Shown here: piece after piece, positions 34,211-43,827 of the stretch
How the letters are laid out: each line of letters starts with the position of its first letter
How positions within the stretch are numbered: the first letter of the stretch is position 1
From: an uncultured Azospirillaceae bacterium
GTDB lineage: Bacteria > Pseudomonadota > Alphaproteobacteria > Rickettsiales > UBA3002
Length of the DNA stretch: 64,000 nucleotides
NCBI GenBank assembly: GCA_964564675.1
Contig: CAZMBI010000005.1
Location: forward strand, 126 to 64,125
Direction of reading: 5' to 3'
Translations under genes and position numbers: made by a program
The notes under the pieces: generated by a model
Databases searched by the model: none
Told to the model about the DNA's origin: nothing
What the model saw: the letters and a program-made list of their open reading frames with translations, nothing else

Positions 34211-34296
34211 GCCGGTATTAAAATAACAGGTCACACGCTTCTTGCTTGCACTCCGCTGTCCATTTCAGTAATCTCGCGCGCAATCAAGGAGCGGCC

Positions 34297-34620
34297 ATGT
34301 CAGACGATGAGCTGCAGGCAAAGCTCGACGCACTGAAACAGCGTCTCGAATCGGCACGCAAACCAGCGTCACCAGCCGACAGCAGCCACCGGCCAATGTC
34401 CTATGGCATGCGTATCGGGGTGGATCTGGTCTCGGGCGTGTTGGTCGGCACCCTGGCCGGTTACGGCTTGGATTACTGGCTAAACACCATGCCCTGGTTT
34501 TTACTGCTCGGCATGGCGTTTGGCACCGCCGCCGGGGTCAGGTTAATGATGGAAACGGCGCGTAAGGCCGCTGCCGAATCCGAACGGGAAGCACACGAGG
34601 GGAACGGACATGGCCGGTAA
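34297..34620 (+). CDS. atpI: ATP synthase protein I (AtpI/AtpR-like)
   Basis: Small two-TM protein immediately upstream of and overlapping atpB. AAGGAG RBS. Confidence 0.7.
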   Translation: MSDDELQAKLDALKQRLESARKPASPADSSHRPMSYGMRIGVDLVSGVLVGTLAGYGLDYWLNTMPWFLLLGMAFGTAAGVRLMMETARKAAAESEREAHEGNGHGR

Positions 34621-35350
34621 TAATCACAGCCCGCTTGCGCAATTCGAAGTCAAATCGCTGGTGCGCATGCCGGAATTATTTGGCTTCAACATCGACTTTA
34701 CCAACGCTTCGTTATTCATGGTGCTGGCGGTTCTTGGCATCTGGGCGCTACTCACCCTGAGCATGCGCGGGCGGGCGCTGGTGCCCGGGCGCTGGCAGTC
34801 GATGGTGGAGTCTTTATACGGCTTTGTCGCCGGTACGGTACGCGATAACTGCGGTAAGGAAGGCAAGGCCTATTTTCCGTTTATTTTCACGCTGTTCATG
34901 TTCATCCTGTTTTGCAACCTGCTGGGCATGGTGCCCTATTCGTTCACGGTCACCAGCCACATTATCGTGACCTTCGCCCTCGCTATTTTTATCTTTTTGA
35001 GTGTGACGCTGATTGCCATAATCAAACACGGTCCGGTTCAGTTTCTGGGCTTTTTCCTGCCCGCCGGTACGCCGCTTTGGATGGCGCCGATGATGTATGT
35101 CATCGAGCTGTTTTCCTATCTGGCCCGCCCGGTCAGTCTGTCGGTGCGTCTAACCGCCAACATGATGGCCGGTCACACCATGCTTAAAGTGATTGCCGGG
35201 CTGGTGGTTTCCTTCGGGTTGATTGGCGCGGCCCCGTTTGCGCTGCTGATAGTCCTCACCGGATTTGAAATCTTTGTGGCTATTCTGCAGGCCTATATTT
35301 TCACCGTGCTGACGTGCGTTTACCTCAATGACGCACTGCATTTACACTAA
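34610..35350 (+). CDS. atpB: F0F1 ATP synthase subunit a
   Basis: SPLAQFEV..., LSVRLTANMMAGH (essential Arg), five TM helices. Confidence 0.95.
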   Translation: MAGNNHSPLAQFEVKSLVRMPELFGFNIDFTNASLFMVLAVLGIWALLTLSMRGRALVPGRWQSMVESLYGFVAGTVRDNCGKEGKAYFPFIFTLFMFILFCNLLGMVPYSFTVTSHIIVTFALAIFIFLSVTLIAIIKHGPVQFLGFFLPAGTPLWMAPMMYVIELFSYLARPVSLSVRLTANMMAGHTMLKVIAGLVVSFGLIGAAPFALLIVLTGFEIFVAILQAYIFTVLTCVYLNDALHLH

Positions 35351-35437
35351 CTGAGGGAAATCGCATGGTAGCGGTTGATTTTTGTGCGACGCCCGTTATG
35401 ACTACTGCCAATCAATAAATTTGAAAGGGGATTTACC

Positions 35438-35665
35438 ATGGAATATGAAGCGTTGAAATATATCGGTGTGGGCCTGATGGCATTTGGCATGCTGGGCGCC
35501 GCCATCGGAGTGGGCAACATCTTTGCCGCCATGCTCAATGGCCTGGCCCGCAACCCGGCGGCGGAAAGCAAGCTCGCCAAATATATTTATGTCGGCGCCG
35601 GTCTGGCGGAAGCAATGGGGCTGTTCGCTCTGGTCGTCGCATTCATGTTGATCTTTGCCGTTTAG
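35438..35665 (+). CDS. atpE: F0F1 ATP synthase subunit c
   Basis: 75-aa hairpin protein, ARNP loop, [10 protein letters not shown] (carboxylate Glu). Confidence 0.95.
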
Positions 35666-35668
35666 TGA

Positions 35669-36280
35669 GTGACGCCGCACCATATGGCCGATTCCTATAC
35701 AACCGACGTGAGTGATGAGCCGGCAGTTGCCGGAGGATTTCAGGAAGTGATTGCCATTGAAGAGCAACACGACAGTGCTGCCGGCGGCATGCCGCAGCTG
35801 AATCCGGACTCCTTCGCCTCGCAGCTGTTCTGGCTTATCATCACGTTTGGTGCGTTGTATCTGCTGATGAGCACGCATCTGATCCCGCGGATCAAACACG
35901 TGCTGGAAAAACGACAGAATCAGCTCACGCATGATCTGGACACGGCGGAAAGAGCCAAGGAAGAGGCCGGCAAAATTCAGGCGGCGTATGAAAAGGAAGT
36001 GGCCGCCGCCCGGCAAAAAGCCAACGACAAGATCAACCAGACCAGCGAAATGATTCGTGAGCAGGCCGCCAAGGCGCACGGCGAACTCGATGCCAAACTG
36101 GCCAGGGAAATGGCTGCCGCCGAACAGTCAATTGCTACCCAGTGCGAACAGGCGAAAGCAGACATGCAACCAGTGGTTACAGAACTATCCAGCCTGATTG
36201 TCGAGAAGATCAGCACCGTCAGACCGGATGACAGCGCGGTCAATCGGGCGGTCAGTAAACAGATGGAGGAGCGCTCATGA
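35669..36280 (+). CDS. atpF2: F0F1 ATP synthase subunit b' (start uncertain: GTG 35669, ATG 35684 or ATG 35789)
   Basis: GMPQLNPDSFASQLFWLIITFGALYLLM plus a long Ala/Lys/Glu helix. The b'/b pair is typical of Alphaproteobacteria. Confidence 0.88.
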   Translation: MTPHHMADSYTTDVSDEPAVAGGFQEVIAIEEQHDSAAGGMPQLNPDSFASQLFWLIITFGALYLLMSTHLIPRIKHVLEKRQNQLTHDLDTAERAKEEAGKIQAAYEKEVAAARQKANDKINQTSEMIREQAAKAHGELDAKLAREMAAAEQSIATQCEQAKADMQPVVTELSSLIVEKISTVRPDDSAVNRAVSKQMEERS

Positions 36281-36768
36281 TGGAGTTGTTTTACTCACCC
36301 AGCTTCTGGGTGGCCGCTTCCTTTGTCGTATTTATGTGGGGCTTTATCAAATATGCCATGCCGTTCATCGTGCGTGCGCTGGATAACCGCACCGCACGTA
36401 TTCGCGATGAGCTGGACGAAGCCATTCGCCTGCGCGAAGAAGCGCAGGCCATATTGACCGACTATCAGAAGCGCTATGAAAAAATGCAGTCGGAGGCGGA
36501 AGCCATCCGCTCCCATGCCGAGCAGGAAGCCGAAGCCATGCTGGCCGATGCCGAGCGTGAGCTGAAAGCCTCCATCGACCGCCGAGCCAGGCTTGCGCAT
36601 GAAAAAATCGCCCGCGCCGAATCGGAGGCCATTCAGCAGATTCAGGCCAATATGGTTGATGTGGCGGTCAGCGCCGCGCGTGTGGTACTGTCCGAACAGA
36701 TGAAGCAAGGCGACGGCGATGCGCTTATCGAATCCACACTTAAAGGGCTGGACCGCGTCGTTCATTAA
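36277..36768 (+). CDS. atpF: F0F1 ATP synthase subunit b
   Basis: N-terminal TM helix plus a long amphipathic helix. ATGA overlap with atpF2. Confidence 0.9.
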   Translation: MMELFYSPSFWVAASFVVFMWGFIKYAMPFIVRALDNRTARIRDELDEAIRLREEAQAILTDYQKRYEKMQSEAEAIRSHAEQEAEAMLADAERELKASIDRRARLAHEKIARAESEAIQQIQANMVDVAVSAARVVLSEQMKQGDGDALIESTLKGLDRVVH

Positions 36769-37582
36769 GGGGCTGGCTAGCTGTTTGCTCATGCCGCTGC
36801 CCGCTTTTGCCGGCGGCTGGACCCAGCCGGAAGGCAGCTGGTATCTCGCCCAGAAAGCCTTTTTTTATCATAACGACACGTTTTTCACCCCCGATGGCGA
36901 GCGTCAGTCGCAGCCGGATTTTACCAAATATGAACTGAATTATTACGCCGAGTACGGCCTGCGTGACGACCTCACGCTGGGCGCCAATCTGTTTGTCCAT
37001 CAGGTTGAGCAGGAAACCGTCCGCGAAGACGGACAAACCCGCTTGTCGCTGAGCAATACCGGGCTTGGCGATAACGAGCTGTTTGTCCGCTGGCGTGTAC
37101 ACGAAGGCGAACAATATGCCCTCTCCCTGCAGCCGCTCATCAAGCTCCCCGCCGTCTATACCGCCAACCGCCTGCCGCGCGGCGGGCGCGAAGACGCCGA
37201 CGCCGAACTGGCTGCTCAACTCGGCTATGCTTTCGATGCGTTCGGGCGTTCGCATTATGCCGATGCCCGTCTGGGCTACCGGCATCGCTTCGGCGAGAAT
37301 ATCAACGACCAATGGCGCGCCGAAGTGGTCTTTGGCCTTAATCTGAACGCACGCTGGCGTTTTCTGCCGGCGATATACACTATCTGGGCCAGTGAAATCC
37401 CGGCAGATACCGCCTTCACCCAGTCCGGCGATAATGATTTTGACCTGATCAAGCTGGAAGGCGCTTTTGAATATCAACTAAGCGAACGCCTCAGCCTGTT
37501 GTTCGGCGCGTTCTCACATGTTGATGGACGCAATAGCGGTGCTGGCTATGGATTATTCACCGGCACGGGGCTGCGCTTATGA
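36719..37582 (+). CDS. Putative outer-membrane beta-barrel protein (start uncertain)
   Basis: Signal-like N-terminus ending LLMPLPAFA|GGW. Aromatic-rich sequence with alternating hydrophobic pattern throughout (YELNYYAEYGL, LTLGANLFV, WRAEVVFGLNLNARWRFLPAIY, LEGAFEYQLSERLSLLFGAF). Overlaps atpF by 50 nt at the ATG at 36719, and overlaps the next gene by ATGA. Confidence 0.55.
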   Translation: MRLSNPHLKGWTASFIKGLASCLLMPLPAFAGGWTQPEGSWYLAQKAFFYHNDTFFTPDGERQSQPDFTKYELNYYAEYGLRDDLTLGANLFVHQVEQETVREDGQTRLSLSNTGLGDNELFVRWRVHEGEQYALSLQPLIKLPAVYTANRLPRGGREDADAELAAQLGYAFDAFGRSHYADARLGYRHRFGENINDQWRAEVVFGLNLNARWRFLPAIYTIWASEIPADTAFTQSGDNDFDLIKLEGAFEYQLSERLSLLFGAFSHVDGRNSGAGYGLFTGTGLRL

Positions 37583-39405
37583 GGCTCGGTGAACACCTGC
37601 TGGCTGACGGGCATATCACCGAGTCGGCCCTGCACCGCGCGCTCGACGAGCAACGCCGCAGCGGCGGTCGGCTCGGAGCCATTCTTGCCGCCTCGCATCG
37701 TCTGCACCCGCTGACGCTGCTTAAAACGCTGGGCCGCCAGTCACACACCGCCACCGTCGATCTGCAAGCCCAGCCGCCGGAAAGTACCGTATTACAGCTT
37801 GCGGATGTGCCGGATTATATCTTTCATCAGGCCATCCCCTATCGCCGTGACGGCCATCTGATCACCCTTGCCTGTGCCGAACGCTCACCGGCCCTGACAC
37901 GTTGGGCCACAGCGCGTTATGGCGAAAACGTGGCATATGTGCTCACCACACCGCGCGATATCCGTACGGCGCTGGCCGCCCGTTTCGGCGCAGCGCTGGA
38001 TGAGCAAAGCCGCACCCATTTGCTCACCCATCAGCCCGAATCCTCCGCCGCGCGCACGCTGTATCCAGGCCAGATGCGCTGGTTGGCGGCCTTGCTGCTG
38101 GTGGTGGCGGCGGCACTTGCCTGGCTGCCCTGGCTGGCGATTCCCATCGGCTTAACCCTGATAAACCTGTTTTACATCGGCACCATCGGCCTGAAATGCC
38201 TGCTTTATCTATATGCACCGGCAGCCCCCGCGCGCGCGCCGCAGGAAGCGATACCGGAGTCCTCACTGCCAGTTTACACCATCCTCATTCCGCTGTACCG
38301 GGAAGCCGCCTCCATCCCGCGGCTGCTGGCGGCCATGCGCGCGCTGGACTATCCCAAGACCAGGCTCGATATTAAACTGGTGGTGGAAGCCGATGACGAA
38401 CCTACCATAGCCGCCATCACAGCCGCCCGCCCCGAACCGTATTTCGACCTCATCCGCGTGCCCTATTCCATACCGCGCACCAAACCCAAGGCGTGCGATT
38501 ATGCGCTGCGCTTTGCCCGCGGTGAATATGTCACGATTTATGACGCCGAAGACCAACCCGAGCCGGATCAGCTGCGCAGCGCGGTGGCGATGTTTCGCCG
38601 TCTGCCCGAATCGGTGGTGTGCCTGCAGGCGCGGCTGAACTATTATAACTGGCCGGAGAATCTGCTCACCCGCTTGTTTGCCATTGAATACGCTTCGCTG
38701 TTTGACGTCATGCTGCCCGGCCTTGAGCGGCTGCGCCTGCCGATTCCTCTCGGCGGCACCAGCAATCATTTTGCACTCACCACGTTGCGCGCCCTCGGCG
38801 AGTGGGATCCGTATAACGTCACCGAAGATGCTGATTTAGGCATGCGCCTGGCGCGCGCCGGTTACGAAACGCGCATGCTGGACTCACTCACCCTTGAGGA
38901 GTCGCCGATTCACCTGCGCGCTTGGATGCATCAACGCGCGCGCTGGATTAAAGGCTATATGCAAACCTGGCTGGTCATGATGCGCCGCCCCGTACATTTT
39001 TATCGCCGGGCGGGCGCGGCCGCGTTTTGGAGTACGCAGTTCTTCATCGGCGGGCCGTGCGCGGTGTTTCTGCTCAGCCCGTTGCTGTGGGGCATTACCA
39101 TTGCCTGGCTCGGCGGATGGCTGCCCGCGGTGGCGCTGCCCGGCTGGCTGATCGCCTTGTGCCTGATCAATCTGATAGCAGGCATTCTGGTGCATCTGTG
39201 GATTGCGCGGGTGGCGGTTCGGCGCTGGCGCTGGCCCGGCATGGCGCTGGCCATGGCGCTGTATCCGTTTTACTGGCTGCTGCATTCGGCAGCCAGTTAC
39301 CGCGCCTTATGGCAACTTATCCGCCAGCCGCATCGCTGGGATAAAACCGTCCACGGGCTCACGCGGCTGGCAGGTATGACGCCAGCTCCTTCGCCGCATA
39401 GGTGA
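37579..39405 (+). CDS. Membrane-embedded processive family-2 glycosyltransferase with an N-terminal MshEN (T2SS-E N-terminal, c-di-GMP-binding) domain
   Basis: Tandem RLGxxLLxxGxIxxxxLxxxLxxQ motifs at residues 2-25 and 31-54 with a 5-residue spacer. GT2 signature set: YTILIPLY, EADD, DAED (38542-53), TED (38821-29) and QRARW (38932-46). About 2 TM helices lie before the catalytic core and about 4 after it. Confidence 0.8.
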   Translation: MRLGEHLLADGHITESALHRALDEQRRSGGRLGAILAASHRLHPLTLLKTLGRQSHTATVDLQAQPPESTVLQLADVPDYIFHQAIPYRRDGHLITLACAERSPALTRWATARYGENVAYVLTTPRDIRTALAARFGAALDEQSRTHLLTHQPESSAARTLYPGQMRWLAALLLVVAAALAWLPWLAIPIGLTLINLFYIGTIGLKCLLYLYAPAAPARAPQEAIPESSLPVYTILIPLYREAASIPRLLAAMRALDYPKTRLDIKLVVEADDEPTIAAITAARPEPYFDLIRVPYSIPRTKPKACDYALRFARGEYVTIYDAEDQPEPDQLRSAVAMFRRLPESVVCLQARLNYYNWPENLLTRLFAIEYASLFDVMLPGLERLRLPIPLGGTSNHFALTTLRALGEWDPYNVTEDADLGMRLARAGYETRMLDSLTLEESPIHLRAWMHQRARWIKGYMQTWLVMMRRPVHFYRRAGAAAFWSTQFFIGGPCAVFLLSPLLWGITIAWLGGWLPAVALPGWLIALCLINLIAGILVHLWIARVAVRRWRWPGMALAMALYPFYWLLHSAASYRALWQLIRQPHRWDKTVHGLTRLAGMTPAPSPHR

Positions 39406-41434: not shown

Positions 41435-41812
41435 ATGATACATGCATCGACCGCAAACACCTCCGCTGTTCACGATTATGAACTACACACGTTATATCTG
41501 ACAATGGGCTTTGATCCCGCATCACCGCCGCCGGATGCGGACATGATTCAGCGCATGCATGATATTTGCGCAGAGCGTGACCGATTAACGCATCACTGCG
41601 TTAGGCTGACGCGCGATAATAAACGACTGGCGTCGTATTTAGACCGATTACAATTCCAAATTCTGGCGATTGAATCCTCGCGTGCATGGAAAGTGGGTTA
41701 TGCCCTGATGCGTTCGGTACGCGCATTATTGAGCCGCCCCTCGGGCCATGCCGCCTTTGCCGAGATTCACCGTGTGTTCACCCTGTATCACCACTGGAAA
41801 AAAGCGCAATGA
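41435..41812 (+). CDS. Hypothetical coiled-coil protein (start uncertain), translationally coupled to the downstream glycosyltransferase
   Basis: 125-aa ORF ending in an ATGA overlap with the next gene. The segment RLASYLDRLQFQILAIESSRAWKVGYALMRSVRAL resembles the coiled-coil leaders seen on some O-antigen/rhamnan glycosyltransferases. There is no obvious RBS at 41435. Confidence 0.45.
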   Translation: MIHASTANTSAVHDYELHTLYLTMGFDPASPPPDADMIQRMHDICAERDRLTHHCVRLTRDNKRLASYLDRLQFQILAIESSRAWKVGYALMRSVRALLSRPSGHAAFAEIHRVFTLYHHWKKAQ

Positions 41813-43827
41813 CCATGCCCTCCTTATGTATCGTAATCTGCGTGCACAACGCCGCCGATTATGCCGAAATCTGCATCGATTCCGTGTTGCGCCACACAAG
41901 CGGCGCATATGAACTGATTTTAGTCAATGACGGCTCGCAAACCGAAGCCACACGCGTGGTACAGTATTTTGCACGGGAATATCCGCATGTGCGTATGATC
42001 CATCACTCGACAGCCCAGGGCTACACCAAGGCGGCCAATGCCGGACTGCGTGCATCGGCGGCGGATTATACAATCCTGCTCAACAGCGACACCATCGTCT
42101 CACCGCAATGGGCGGAACGCCTCATCGCCTGCGGTGAAAGCGACCCGCGCATCGGGATTATCGGTCCGCTTTCCAATGCCGCGACGTACCAATCCGTCCC
42201 GCGCGTGTTTGATGAACAGGGACAATGGCAACAAAACGTTCTGCCCGGTGATATCACGGTAACCCGATATGCCGAAGCCATCGCCGGTATCGCCGCGCGC
42301 AACTATCCGCGCCTGCCGGTGGCAAACGGATTTTGCTTTACCGTTAAACGCGCTGTGATCGACACCATCGGCTATCTGGATGAAGAGACCTTCCCGCAAG
42401 GTTACGGCGAGGAAAACGACTATTGCATCCGTGCCGCTGATGCCGGTTTTGAGATTGCCATCGCAGATGATGTGTATGTCTATCATGCGGTCTCGCAAAG
42501 TTTTGGCGAAAAGGCGCGCAAACAATTCACCCATGACGCGCACCATGCCATTCGCAGCAAATATTCCAAGCAACGGCTGGATGCGATTGACCAGGCCCTG
42601 CGCAGCGACCCGGTAATGGAGGCAATGCGTGATCGCATCATTCAGCTGATCGAACGCGCGCCGGGCTCTTCGGTTTACACACCGCAAACCCGGCATTTCC
42701 CCAAACCCAATCAGGATATGCATTGCCTGTTCCTGTTGCCGGATTGCACCGCCACGGCCGGGGGCACGCAGATGGTGGTGGAGCTGGCGCGCGGGCTGGC
42801 CGGGCTTGGCGTCGGCGTGCGGCTGGCGATCAAAGCCGCCATGCGCCAGGAGTTCGAGCAGTTCTTCCCGGCGGATTTTCATCTGATGGATTTTTACCAG
42901 CGCGACGAGGAGCTTTACGCCAGGGCGGCGCATTATAACGTCGTGGTGGCGACAATTTATCATTCGATGCGCCAGCTCAAGCAGATAACCACGCGCTATC
43001 CGCATGTGCTGCCGCTTTATTTTGTGCAGGATTATGAACCGCTGTTCCATGACGAGCACCCGCATCTGAAAGAACTGGCGCTTGAGAGCTACACCATGGT
43101 GCCGCATGCGCGGCTGGTTGCCATCAGCCCGTGGGTTCAGATGGTACTGTTCGAGCAGCACGGCCTGCAGGTGGAGTATTTCCGCGCCTGCCTGGATCAC
43201 AGCCTGTTTTTCCCGGACTATGGACGGTCGCTCGACGAGCCGCTGACGGTTACCGCCATGATCCGTCCGCATACGCAGTGGCGCGCGCCCGCCCGCACCA
43301 TGATGATTCTCAGGCAGCTCAAGGCCAAATTCGGTGATGCCGTCCACATCGCCATTTTCGGCTGTCGCGATGAGGATCTATTGCGCGACGAGCTCGATAG
43401 TGACGTGGAGATGACCAACTATGGCGTGCTTAACCGGCACGATGTGGCAGGCCTGTTGCGTATGAGCGATATTTTCCTCGATTTATCTGATTTTCAGGCA
43501 TTCGGCCGCACGGCGCTGGAAGCGTTGGCCTGCGGCTGCGCCGTGGTTGCTCCGCAAGCCGGCGGAGTCAGCGATTTCGGCCGGCACGCCGATAATCTGC
43601 TGCTGATAGATACCGCTAACGAGATGCAGTGTTTTGCCGCGGCTTCCGAATTGGTGGCAAACGCCAAATTGCGGCTGCATCTGCGTGAGCACGCCATCGC
43701 CTCGGCGCAGGATTATTCCATCCATCGCGGCGCGCTGAGTTTTTTACAACTGGTACACCGCCTCAGCGCCGCCGAGGAAGCACCGACCGAACATCAATAT
43801 CACCTTGCCTTGAAAAGCACCGGCTAA
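41809..43827 (+). CDS. Bifunctional glycosyltransferase (N-terminal GT2 domain + C-terminal GT4/group-1 domain)
   Basis: N-terminus: SLCIVICVHNAADYAEICIDSVLRHT...LVNDGS...NSDT...GFCF (GT2, rhamnosyl/galactosyl-transferase-like). C-terminus: FGRTALEALACGCAVVAP..GG..DF (GT4 EX7E region). Start trimmed to the ATG at 41809. Confidence 0.8.
   Translation: MTMPSLCIVICVHNAADYAEICIDSVLRHTSGAYELILVNDGSQTEATRVVQYFAREYPHVRMIHHSTAQGYTKAANAGLRASAADYTILLNSDTIVSPQWAERLIACGESDPRIGIIGPLSNAATYQSVPRVFDEQGQWQQNVLPGDITVTRYAEAIAGIAARNYPRLPVANGFCFTVKRAVIDTIGYLDEETFPQGYGEENDYCIRAADAGFEIAIADDVYVYHAVSQSFGEKARKQFTHDAHHAIRSKYSKQRLDAIDQALRSDPVMEAMRDRIIQLIERAPGSSVYTPQTRHFPKPNQDMHCLFLLPDCTATAGGTQMVVELARGLAGLGVGVRLAIKAAMRQEFEQFFPADFHLMDFYQRDEELYARAAHYNVVVATIYHSMRQLKQITTRYPHVLPLYFVQDYEPLFHDEHPHLKELALESYTMVPHARLVAISPWVQMVLFEQHGLQVEYFRACLDHSLFFPDYGRSLDEPLTVTAMIRPHTQWRAPARTMMILRQLKAKFGDAVHIAIFGCRDEDLLRDELDSDVEMTNYGVLNRHDVAGLLRMSDIFLDLSDFQAFGRTALEALACGCAVVAPQAGGVSDFGRHADNLLLIDTANEMQCFAAASELVANAKLRLHLREHAIASAQDYSIHRGALSFLQLVHRLSAAEEAPTEHQYHLALKSTG

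Follow-up and report, generated by a model that had tools for sequence, protein, structure and literature searches.

Escherichia coli NfrB, which works with NfrA and YbcH, was shown experimentally in 2021 to be an exopolysaccharide (EPS) synthase activated by cyclic di-GMP (c-di-GMP), and synthesis of the N4 glycan receptor depends on its MshEN motif as well as on its glycosyltransferase active site. The architecture with the sensor in front was catalogued by Wang et al. (2016), whose Supplementary Table 4 lists "MshEN - Glyco_trans_2_3" (Rhodobacter sphaeroides Rsph17029_0522) for Actinobacteria, Firmicutes, and Proteobacteria, with "Glyco_trans_2_3 - MshEN" (NfrB) as the adjacent entry. In Xanthomonas oryzae pv. 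oryzicola, deletion of xagA or xagB abolishes the extra biofilm of a high-c-di-GMP mutant lacking the c-di-GMP phosphodiesterase RpfG, and xag transcription is raised in the same rpfG mutant. Roelofs et al. (2015) predicted an unidentified c-di-GMP receptor encoded by xagABC, and XagB-like genes have also been named as candidate stalk-synthesis genes of iron oxidizers; their N-terminal domain was interpreted there as "EpsE-like T2SS." Here, we analyzed a window of 64,000 nucleotides from an uncultured Azospirillaceae bacterium (contig CAZMBI010000005.1), hereafter called the window, in which a gene for a family 2 glycosyltransferase (GT2) with an N-terminal MshEN domain follows a gene for a small outer-membrane barrel. 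Our results indicate that this pair is a xagA-xagB module and that it probably acts as a c-di-GMP-gated processive synthase with an outer-membrane barrel as exit pore.

The synthase open reading frame (ORF) is the longest possible reading at its position, with no upstream start possible. A protein search with its product returned about 8,000 relatives; among the best 120 of these, most carry both MshEN and GT2 Pfam domains, and the query is covered to at least 91% in all of them and to at least 96% in 117. Several relatives are labeled "glycosyltransferase XagB" by the Joint Genome Institute (JGI), and the names "glycosyltransferase XagB" and "protein XagA" are also in use in KEGG. The nearest relatives come from metagenome-assembled genomes labeled Rickettsiales or Alphaproteobacteria. 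Identity to the XagB proteins of Xanthomonas cucurbitae and Xanthomonas sp. is 43% (residues 3-596), and the alignment with Xanthomonas XagB gave 42.4% over 602 aligned positions (tblastn E value of 1.7e-136). The Xanthomonas protein keeps the tandem motif and scores 45 bits with the Pfam MshEN model. Because the ORF upstream of xagB encodes a XagA homolog (28% identity to X. cucurbitae XagA, 291 aa, BLASTP E value of 6e-20; a relative at 41% identity is labeled "protein XagA" by JGI), the window holds a xagA-xagB pair, and the stop codon of xagA overlaps the start codon of xagB (ATGA).

The gene is thus a member of a known and very large family. XagB-type loci number at least 597 in species-representative genomes, those listed including Xanthomonas, Mariprofundus, Nitrospirillum, Devosia, Paenibacillus, and Mucilaginibacter as well as Chloroflexi, Actinobacteria, cyanobacteria, Thermotogae, and Aquificota, and an exhaustive HMMER search gave 2,546 clusters at 50% identity (E value of ≤1e-30). 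Sfz2 of the zetaproteobacterial stalk cluster belongs to the same family. Many family representatives (P0191, P0203, P0208, P0221, and others) are about 1,220 to 1,335 aa long and carry the XagB-like part at the C terminus (approximately residues 700 to 1310); in these proteins of about 1,300 aa, XagB would be fused to a large partner at the N terminus, which may be a BcsB-like protein.

The tandem MshEN motif claimed by the first-pass annotation, with its RRSGG spacer, stands at the extreme N terminus of XagB, and our recount of the fixed signature positions agrees at 10/11 for motif I and 8/11 for motif II, the mismatches being H12 (I-11), A37 (II-7), H40 (II-10), and R41 (II-11). The NCBIfam profile NF053729 ("cyclic di-GMP-binding domain, MshE-related") scores 46.6 bits on residues 2-54 (E value of 2.2e-12), its 53 positions being aligned in full, and since this score exceeds the curated cut-off of 38 bits by 8.6 bits, the motif match is not due to chance. 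Pfam MshEN (PF05157) reaches 21.8 bits on residues 59-139, slightly under its gathering score of 23.1. The following stretch of about 100 residues, proposed before as the remainder of a type II secretion system (T2SS) ATPase N-terminal domain, indeed corresponds to MshEN_C: the N-terminal 164 aa match the solved MshEN domains of PilF (3e-12), PilB (4e-7), and MshE (5HTL, 3e-4), the PilB and PilF alignments extend to XagB residues 131-134, and AlphaFold predicts an alpha/beta fold in this region. A profile built from 25 family sequences matches the solved domains of PilF at 2e-35 and MshE at 2.8e-13.

According to Wang et al. (2016), each motif contributes six c-di-GMP contact residues in the MshE crystal structure (R, L, and G at positions 1-3, L17, L21, and Q24), while the turn glycines (G18 and G47 in MshE) and the hydrophobic core make no contact with the ligand. 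All 12 contact residues are kept in XagB (R2, L3, G4, L18, L22, and Q25 in motif I; R31, L32, G33, L47, L51, and Q54 in motif II). The turn glycine of motif I is also kept (G11), with H12 in place of a core hydrophobic residue. Among the 120 homologs, the contact positions are strongly conserved (G I-3 and G II-3 in 117 each, Q I-24 in 112, L II-17 in 111), and distant taxa such as Xanthomonas and Mariprofundus keep them as well. For the receptor predicted by Roelofs et al. (2015), the XagB MshEN domain is the obvious candidate.

The processive-synthase motifs DAED, TED, and QRARW lie where the first-pass annotation had placed them (Table 1). In family alignments of 25 and 120 sequences, D273, D322, D325, E416, D417, Q452, R453, R455, and W456 are invariant, and T415 is invariant in the former and nearly so in the latter; the second catalytic motif, DAED, is of the DxxD/DxE type rather than a strict DxD. 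W587, K589, T590, and H592 of a C-terminal W-D-K-T-x-H motif, which reads WDKTVH here, are likewise invariant in both alignments. Hydropathy and AlphaFold (predicted local distance difference test [pLDDT] of 94.9, predicted template modeling score of 0.93) agree with the proposed topology of an N-terminal MshEN domain, a transmembrane (TM) hairpin, a processive GT2 core, and a C-terminal TM bundle. The model begins with a four-helix bundle (helices 3-9, 15-28, 32-38, and 44-55), followed by the alpha/beta subdomain, a long helix (125-151), the TM hairpin, the GT-A core, the interface helix with QRARW, and the TM bundle, and region 471-582 holds three long TM helices together with short ones by both methods. 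Foldseek placed the model closest in the Protein Data Bank (PDB) to BcsA (4P00; E value of 2e-13, query TM-score of 0.52) and to the hyaluronan synthases (HAS) of Chlorella virus (Cv) and Xenopus (Xl) (E values of about 1e-12), with 435 to 497 aligned columns for the top hits, and the family profile matches BcsA too in a PDB profile search. These fold matches are all processive synthases that form a channel. In the predicted structure, the GT-A domain packs against a TM bundle that would form the glycan channel. The catalytic motifs of XagB are intact, and judged from these models, it is most likely a processive, inverting GT2 synthase that sits in the inner membrane and belongs to the structural class of BcsA, HAS, and NfrB.

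The likeness to NfrB of E. coli K-12 covers both modules. By BLASTP, XagB 235-606 aligns with NfrB 73-489 (E value of 2e-10, 23% identity, 435 aligned positions), and the MshEN region, XagB 3-132, aligns with NfrB 490-619 (E value of 3e-4, 30% identity). The WDKTxH motif is common to the two proteins and reads WDKTTHD at residues 469-475 of NfrB, 13 residues ahead of the MshEN motif (PLGQILL at 489). Because the core, the WDKTxH motif, and the MshEN region align in permuted order, XagB looks like a permuted NfrB. The alignments suggest that the two are permuted versions of one design in which the WDKTxH loop would be the regulated element. We take the FxVTxK loop of BcsA and the WGT loop of HAS to be the counterparts of WDKTxH. 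By analogy with them, we infer that this loop may be a gating loop controlled by the sensor.

The partner, XagA, is predicted to be a small outer-membrane beta-barrel. ATG 36719, which lies 50 nt within the 3' end of atpF, is the sole xagA start that gives a signal peptide (...PLPAFA|GGW); the later starts TTG 36785 and ATG 36791 were rejected because the signal peptide is lost. The AlphaFold model (pLDDT of 91.5) consists of a signal-peptide helix and then an all-beta barrel with no tetratricopeptide repeat (TPR). XagA itself matches no Pfam or NCBIfam family, and PF13557 is found in remote homologs only. Its best folds are FapF (5O67), a polypeptide/amyloid transporter, and the COG4313 channel (4RL8), with TM-scores of about 0.65. 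Both are 12-stranded, and the COG4313 channel is linked to uptake of hydrophobic molecules. The XagA barrel is far smaller than, and unlike, the TPR-linked pores of 16 to 18 strands in the cellulose, poly-N-acetylglucosamine, alginate, and Nfr systems.

The gene neighborhoods of the family were counted by tblastn around XagB in 80 genomes. A XagA-like gene adjoins XagB in 35 of them; BcsB-like and XagC-like genes adjoin it in 25 each, GH113 (glycoside hydrolase family 113) in 20, and REC-GGDEF-like genes in 19 (12 at E values of ≤1e-30, 7 with the receiver part only). The X. cucurbitae locus has the order xagA-xagB-xagC-xagD. XagD is a GH113 hydrolase (loci L009, 9130-10098, and L036, 11236-12282). 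A typical alphaproteobacterial cluster holds, in this order, genes for BcsB-like, XagB, XagC, REC-GGDEF, XagA, and GH113 proteins. The c-di-GMP control of the XagB family is supported by the diguanylate-cyclase-type gene embedded in such clusters, which would give the synthase its own local diguanylate cyclase. This REC-GGDEF (PleD-like) gene lies between xagC and xagA in many alphaproteobacterial clusters, e.g., L036 (9427-10389), and it was also seen in L011, L025, L028, L033, L034, L037, L044, L052-L054, L056, L058, and L071; the tblastn matches in L011, L033, and L056 are short and possibly confined to the receiver domain.

In the window, the pair directly follows an ATP synthase F0 operon, and a promoter/terminator scan found no terminator-like site separating atpF from xagA (counts the same as in shuffles). 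The order atpB-atpF'-atpF-xagA-xagB is complete, with full-length xagA, in the related loci L001-L004 and L006-L008, alphaproteobacterial genomes in which the XagB proteins are only 41 to 49% identical. In L012, the space between atpF and xagB holds just a 57-aa XagA-like fragment; L015 has atpF'-atpF upstream of xagB, with neither atpB nor xagA detected. The closest relatives of the window likewise have no xag genes there beyond this pair. It is an odd arrangement for an EPS module to be joined to the ATP synthase F0 operon.

We therefore propose the following working model. XagB would polymerize an NDP-sugar into a beta-linked glycan and thread it through its own TM channel, and the XagA barrel would serve as exit pore for the glycan. 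The cytoplasmic N-terminal MshEN domain would bind one c-di-GMP via both 24-residue motifs, and by analogy with NfrB and BcsA, binding would relieve auto-inhibition, with the C-terminal WDKTxH loop over the active site as the likely target. xagAB would share a transcript with the ATP synthase F0 operon, which is constitutive; because of this presumed co-transcription with a housekeeping operon, post-translational gating by c-di-GMP would be the main control. As for the product, GH113 is a beta-mannanase family, and Xanthomonas biofilm is dispersed by the mannanase ManA; the frequent GH113 partner and the ManA dispersal weakly suggest that the Xag polymer is a beta-mannan-like glycan. For production and translocation of a polymer, the evidence is genetic and comes from the Xanthomonas orthologs.

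Table 1. Coordinates of the xagA-xagB module and the adjoining F0 operon in the window
Feature	Position	Strand	Remarks
atpI-atpB-(atpE)-atpF'-atpF F0 operon, directly upstream of xagA	34246..36768	+	Pfam matches
xagA-like gene	36719..37582	+	secreted outer-membrane beta-barrel, 287 aa
xagB-like gene	37579..39405	+	MshEN-TM2-GT2-TM synthase, 608 aa; ATG start
MshEN motif I, residues 2-25	37582..37653	+	RLGEHLLADGHITESALHRALDEQ
Spacer RRSGG, residues 26-30	37654..37668	+	5 residues, the canonical length per Wang et al. 2016
MshEN motif II, residues 31-54	37669..37740	+	RLGAILAASHRLHPLTLLKTLGRQ
MshEN_C (T2SSE_N1-like) alpha/beta subdomain, residues 59-139	37753..37995	+	PF05157; AlphaFold strands 85-91, 94-99, 118-122
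TM hairpin, residues 163-212	38065..38214	+	brings chain back to cytoplasm; hydropathy peak 165-213, AlphaFold helices 163-182 and 184-212
GT-A catalytic core, residues 233-440	38275..38898	+	Pfam GT2 models, 1e-17 to 8e-12
EADD in GT-A core	38386-38397	+	
DAED, residues 322-325	38542-38553	+	
PLGGTSNH	within GT-A core, 38275..38898	+	
TED, residues 415-417	38821-38829	+	
QRARW (QxxRW), residues 452-456	38932..38946	+	on interface helix 446-467 (AlphaFold)
C-terminal TM helices, residues 480-582	39016..39324	+	putative translocation channel; hydropathy and AlphaFold
W-D-K-T-x-H motif, residues 587-592	39337..39354	+	candidate gating loop

Several observations weigh against this reading, first of all in the sensor. 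H40 substitutes the glycine of the motif II alpha3-alpha4 turn (the G47 equivalent), and replacement of this glycine in MshE by Leu or Ile markedly lowers c-di-GMP binding (Wang et al. 2016). H12, A37, and R41 occupy helix-packing core positions, and XagB begins one residue ahead of the motif, so that the basic patch at the N terminus of MshE has no counterpart in it. In our literature search, made without most subscription journals, no N-terminal MshEN-GT2 protein turned up for which c-di-GMP binding had been shown experimentally, and no GT2 fusion is among the proteins tested by isothermal titration calorimetry in Supplementary Table 6 of Wang et al. (2016). Taken at face value, the turn substitution and the non-hydrophobic or small residues at the other three positions would fit a degenerate MshEN domain that does not bind c-di-GMP, as for Xanthomonas XpsE, and that has a structural, oligomerization, or docking role in a synthase that is constitutive or otherwise controlled. 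Many MshEN domains have lost binding, and the Pfam score under the gathering threshold and the lack of c-di-GMP enzymes in the crude scan of the window described below point the same way. However, all 12 contact residues and the NF053729 score over the cut-off speak against such a loss, and the helices around H40 (32-38 and 44-55) are modeled at a pLDDT of about 97 in spite of the substitution. The motif II turn position is G in 98 of the 120 homologs, and the nearest relatives of XagB carry H, N, T, or R there with the contact residues retained; because they vary at this position yet keep the contacts, the turn seems to be permissive in the clade. It is thus plausible, from alignment and model, that the confident bundle, the turn-tolerant relatives, and the conserved contact positions reflect a sensor that still binds c-di-GMP, with H40 as the chief reservation, and we consider a degenerate domain rather unlikely.

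The locus itself raises further reservations. By tblastn, xagC, xagD/GH113, BcsB-like, and REC-GGDEF genes were not found in the 64-kb window, and a crude six-frame regex scan of the window ORFs gave no GGDEF, EAL (DDFGTG), HD-GYP, or PilZ signature. Since XagB has BcsB-like and XagC proteins beside it in most other genomes, the set of two genes seen here may be incomplete or dependent on unlinked genes. The missing xagC and xagD may sit elsewhere in the genome, and the close relatives L001-L008 also lack both near xagB. We know of no precedent for a barrel as small as XagA as an EPS pore. As for close orthologs with a defined product and mechanism, these proved to be named and to have a biofilm phenotype, but a 2019 review stated that the nature of the Xag polymer "remains to be established" even in Xanthomonas.

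Alternatively, XagB might make a glycolipid of the membrane, or oligosaccharides that are short or cyclic, like glucosyl-diacylglycerol synthases and NodC, and XagA would then be an unrelated small-molecule channel. Some homologs are automatically annotated as beta-monoglucosyldiacylglycerol synthase, Pfam gives a weak Glyco_transf_21 match on XagB, the COG4313 channel with its presumed hydrophobic cargo is among the closest folds of XagA, and the periplasmic BcsB-like and XagC partners and GH113 are absent from the window. On the other hand, XagB has the full D/DxD-like/TED/QxxRW set and a TM bundle that superposes on BcsA and HAS, its homology reaches the EPS synthase NfrB, and the xagA and xagB mutants of Xanthomonas lose biofilm matrix. 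The genes that commonly stand beside xagB in the family, for BcsB-like proteins and glycoside hydrolases, are also of the kind typical for synthase-dependent EPS systems, and xagA and xagB are translationally coupled through the ATGA overlap. On balance, a glycolipid or oligosaccharide product appears improbable. That XagB stands for a categorically new class of c-di-GMP-gated synthases without kinship to described systems is very improbable: the N-terminal sensor is unlike the arrangements of BcsA (C-terminal PilZ), Alg44, PgaCD, and NfrB (C-terminal MshEN), and no direct biochemical study of it was found in the literature, but the architecture was listed in 2016, the huge family already bears the name XagB, and the NfrB homology spans both modules.

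The first-pass annotation had called the gene a candidate new type of synthase and had stated that no characterized polysaccharide synthase is gated in this way. Neither statement can be kept, because NfrB, a c-di-GMP-activated GT2-MshEN protein, is a characterized precedent, the architecture was catalogued by Wang et al. (2016), and the gene pair is xagA-xagB. Its underlying idea, a c-di-GMP-gated EPS synthase working with the upstream barrel, is nevertheless the best-supported reading, given the XagAB orthology and the NfrB homology.

Beyond the module, an Rfam scan of the window found no c-di-GMP riboswitch and one tRNA only. xagB is followed by the convergent gene hemB on the minus strand, and the 3' ends of the two genes overlap by 47 nt (39359-39405); the XagB tail in this overlap (approximately residues 594-608) is non-conserved and has a pLDDT of 66. 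Further downstream, 2.3 kb from xagB and on the same strand, with hemB and a phasin gene between, lies a separate glycan-synthesis gene for a 713-aa protein (41686-43827, plus strand) in which a GT2 domain (residues 48-160) is fused to a GT4/GT1-type domain (residues 540-690), accompanied by a small ORF (41435-41812).

With its architecture published in 2016 and its mechanism having a characterized precedent in NfrB, the interest of this locus lies in the family it represents, which comprises about 2,500 clusters at 50% identity in many phyla, including a Xanthomonas biofilm locus and candidate stalk genes of iron oxidizers. The minimal xagAB pair would be a convenient system for studying c-di-GMP binding by XagB and the identity of the polymer. 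One possibility, which we put forward tentatively, is that the system of this clade has been pared down to two proteins, an MshEN-gated XagB and a small FapF/COG4313-like XagA pore, hard-wired to the F0 operon and working without a BcsB-like, XagC, TPR-porin, or hydrolase partner. If xagAB does suffice, no simpler synthase-dependent EPS secretion system would be known in a diderm, XagA would be a new class of outer-membrane glycan pore, and the pair would be an unusually tractable model for MshEN gating of a synthase and for the identity of the Xag polymer.

Compared with known systems, the module is closest to the xag locus of Xanthomonas, with full-length orthology of XagB, an identical MshEN-TM2-GT2-TM layout, and a homologous xagA immediately upstream. 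It differs in that xagC and xagD (GH113) are present in Xanthomonas and neither is in this window, in that the documented c-di-GMP control in Xanthomonas is transcriptional, via Clp and RpfG, and in that the module here adjoins the ATP synthase F0 operon. In contrast to most other proteobacterial xag clusters, it stands without BcsB-like and REC-GGDEF genes. BcsA, which works with BcsB, and the hyaluronan synthases share the catalytic motifs of XagB and are its best fold matches, and BcsA alone of these also shares the logic of a c-di-GMP-gated processive synthase-translocase; XagB, however, has no PilZ domain and fewer TM helices, and there is no BcsB at the locus, although BcsB-like genes are common beside XagB elsewhere. 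The earlier observation that no BcsB-, PilZ-, or Alg44-like partner is encoded nearby holds for the entire window. Membership in the BcsA family was rejected on TIGR03030 (CelA; 55 bits against a cut-off of 699) and NF008558 (32 against 992), together with the lack of PilZ and of a BcsB-like gene in the window. With MshE, PilB, and PilF, the ATPases of T2SS and type IV pili, XagB shares the 53-residue tandem motif and MshEN_C; the output there is a secretion ATPase, whereas in XagB it is a membrane glycosyltransferase, and unlike MshE, XagB has no turn glycine in motif II. Like NfrB, finally, XagB combines a GT2 synthase and an MshEN c-di-GMP sensor in one polypeptide and is co-encoded with an outer-membrane barrel. 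The NfrB equivalog NF008411 was rejected for XagB, with 28 bits against a cut-off of 1170, a match to the MshEN part only, and a reversed domain order. The MshEN domain of NfrB is C-terminal and comes directly after WDKTTHD, while that of XagB is N-terminal and joined via an extra TM hairpin, and NfrA is a protein of 990 aa with TPR and a 16-stranded barrel in published models, whereas XagA is a barrel of 287 aa without TPR.

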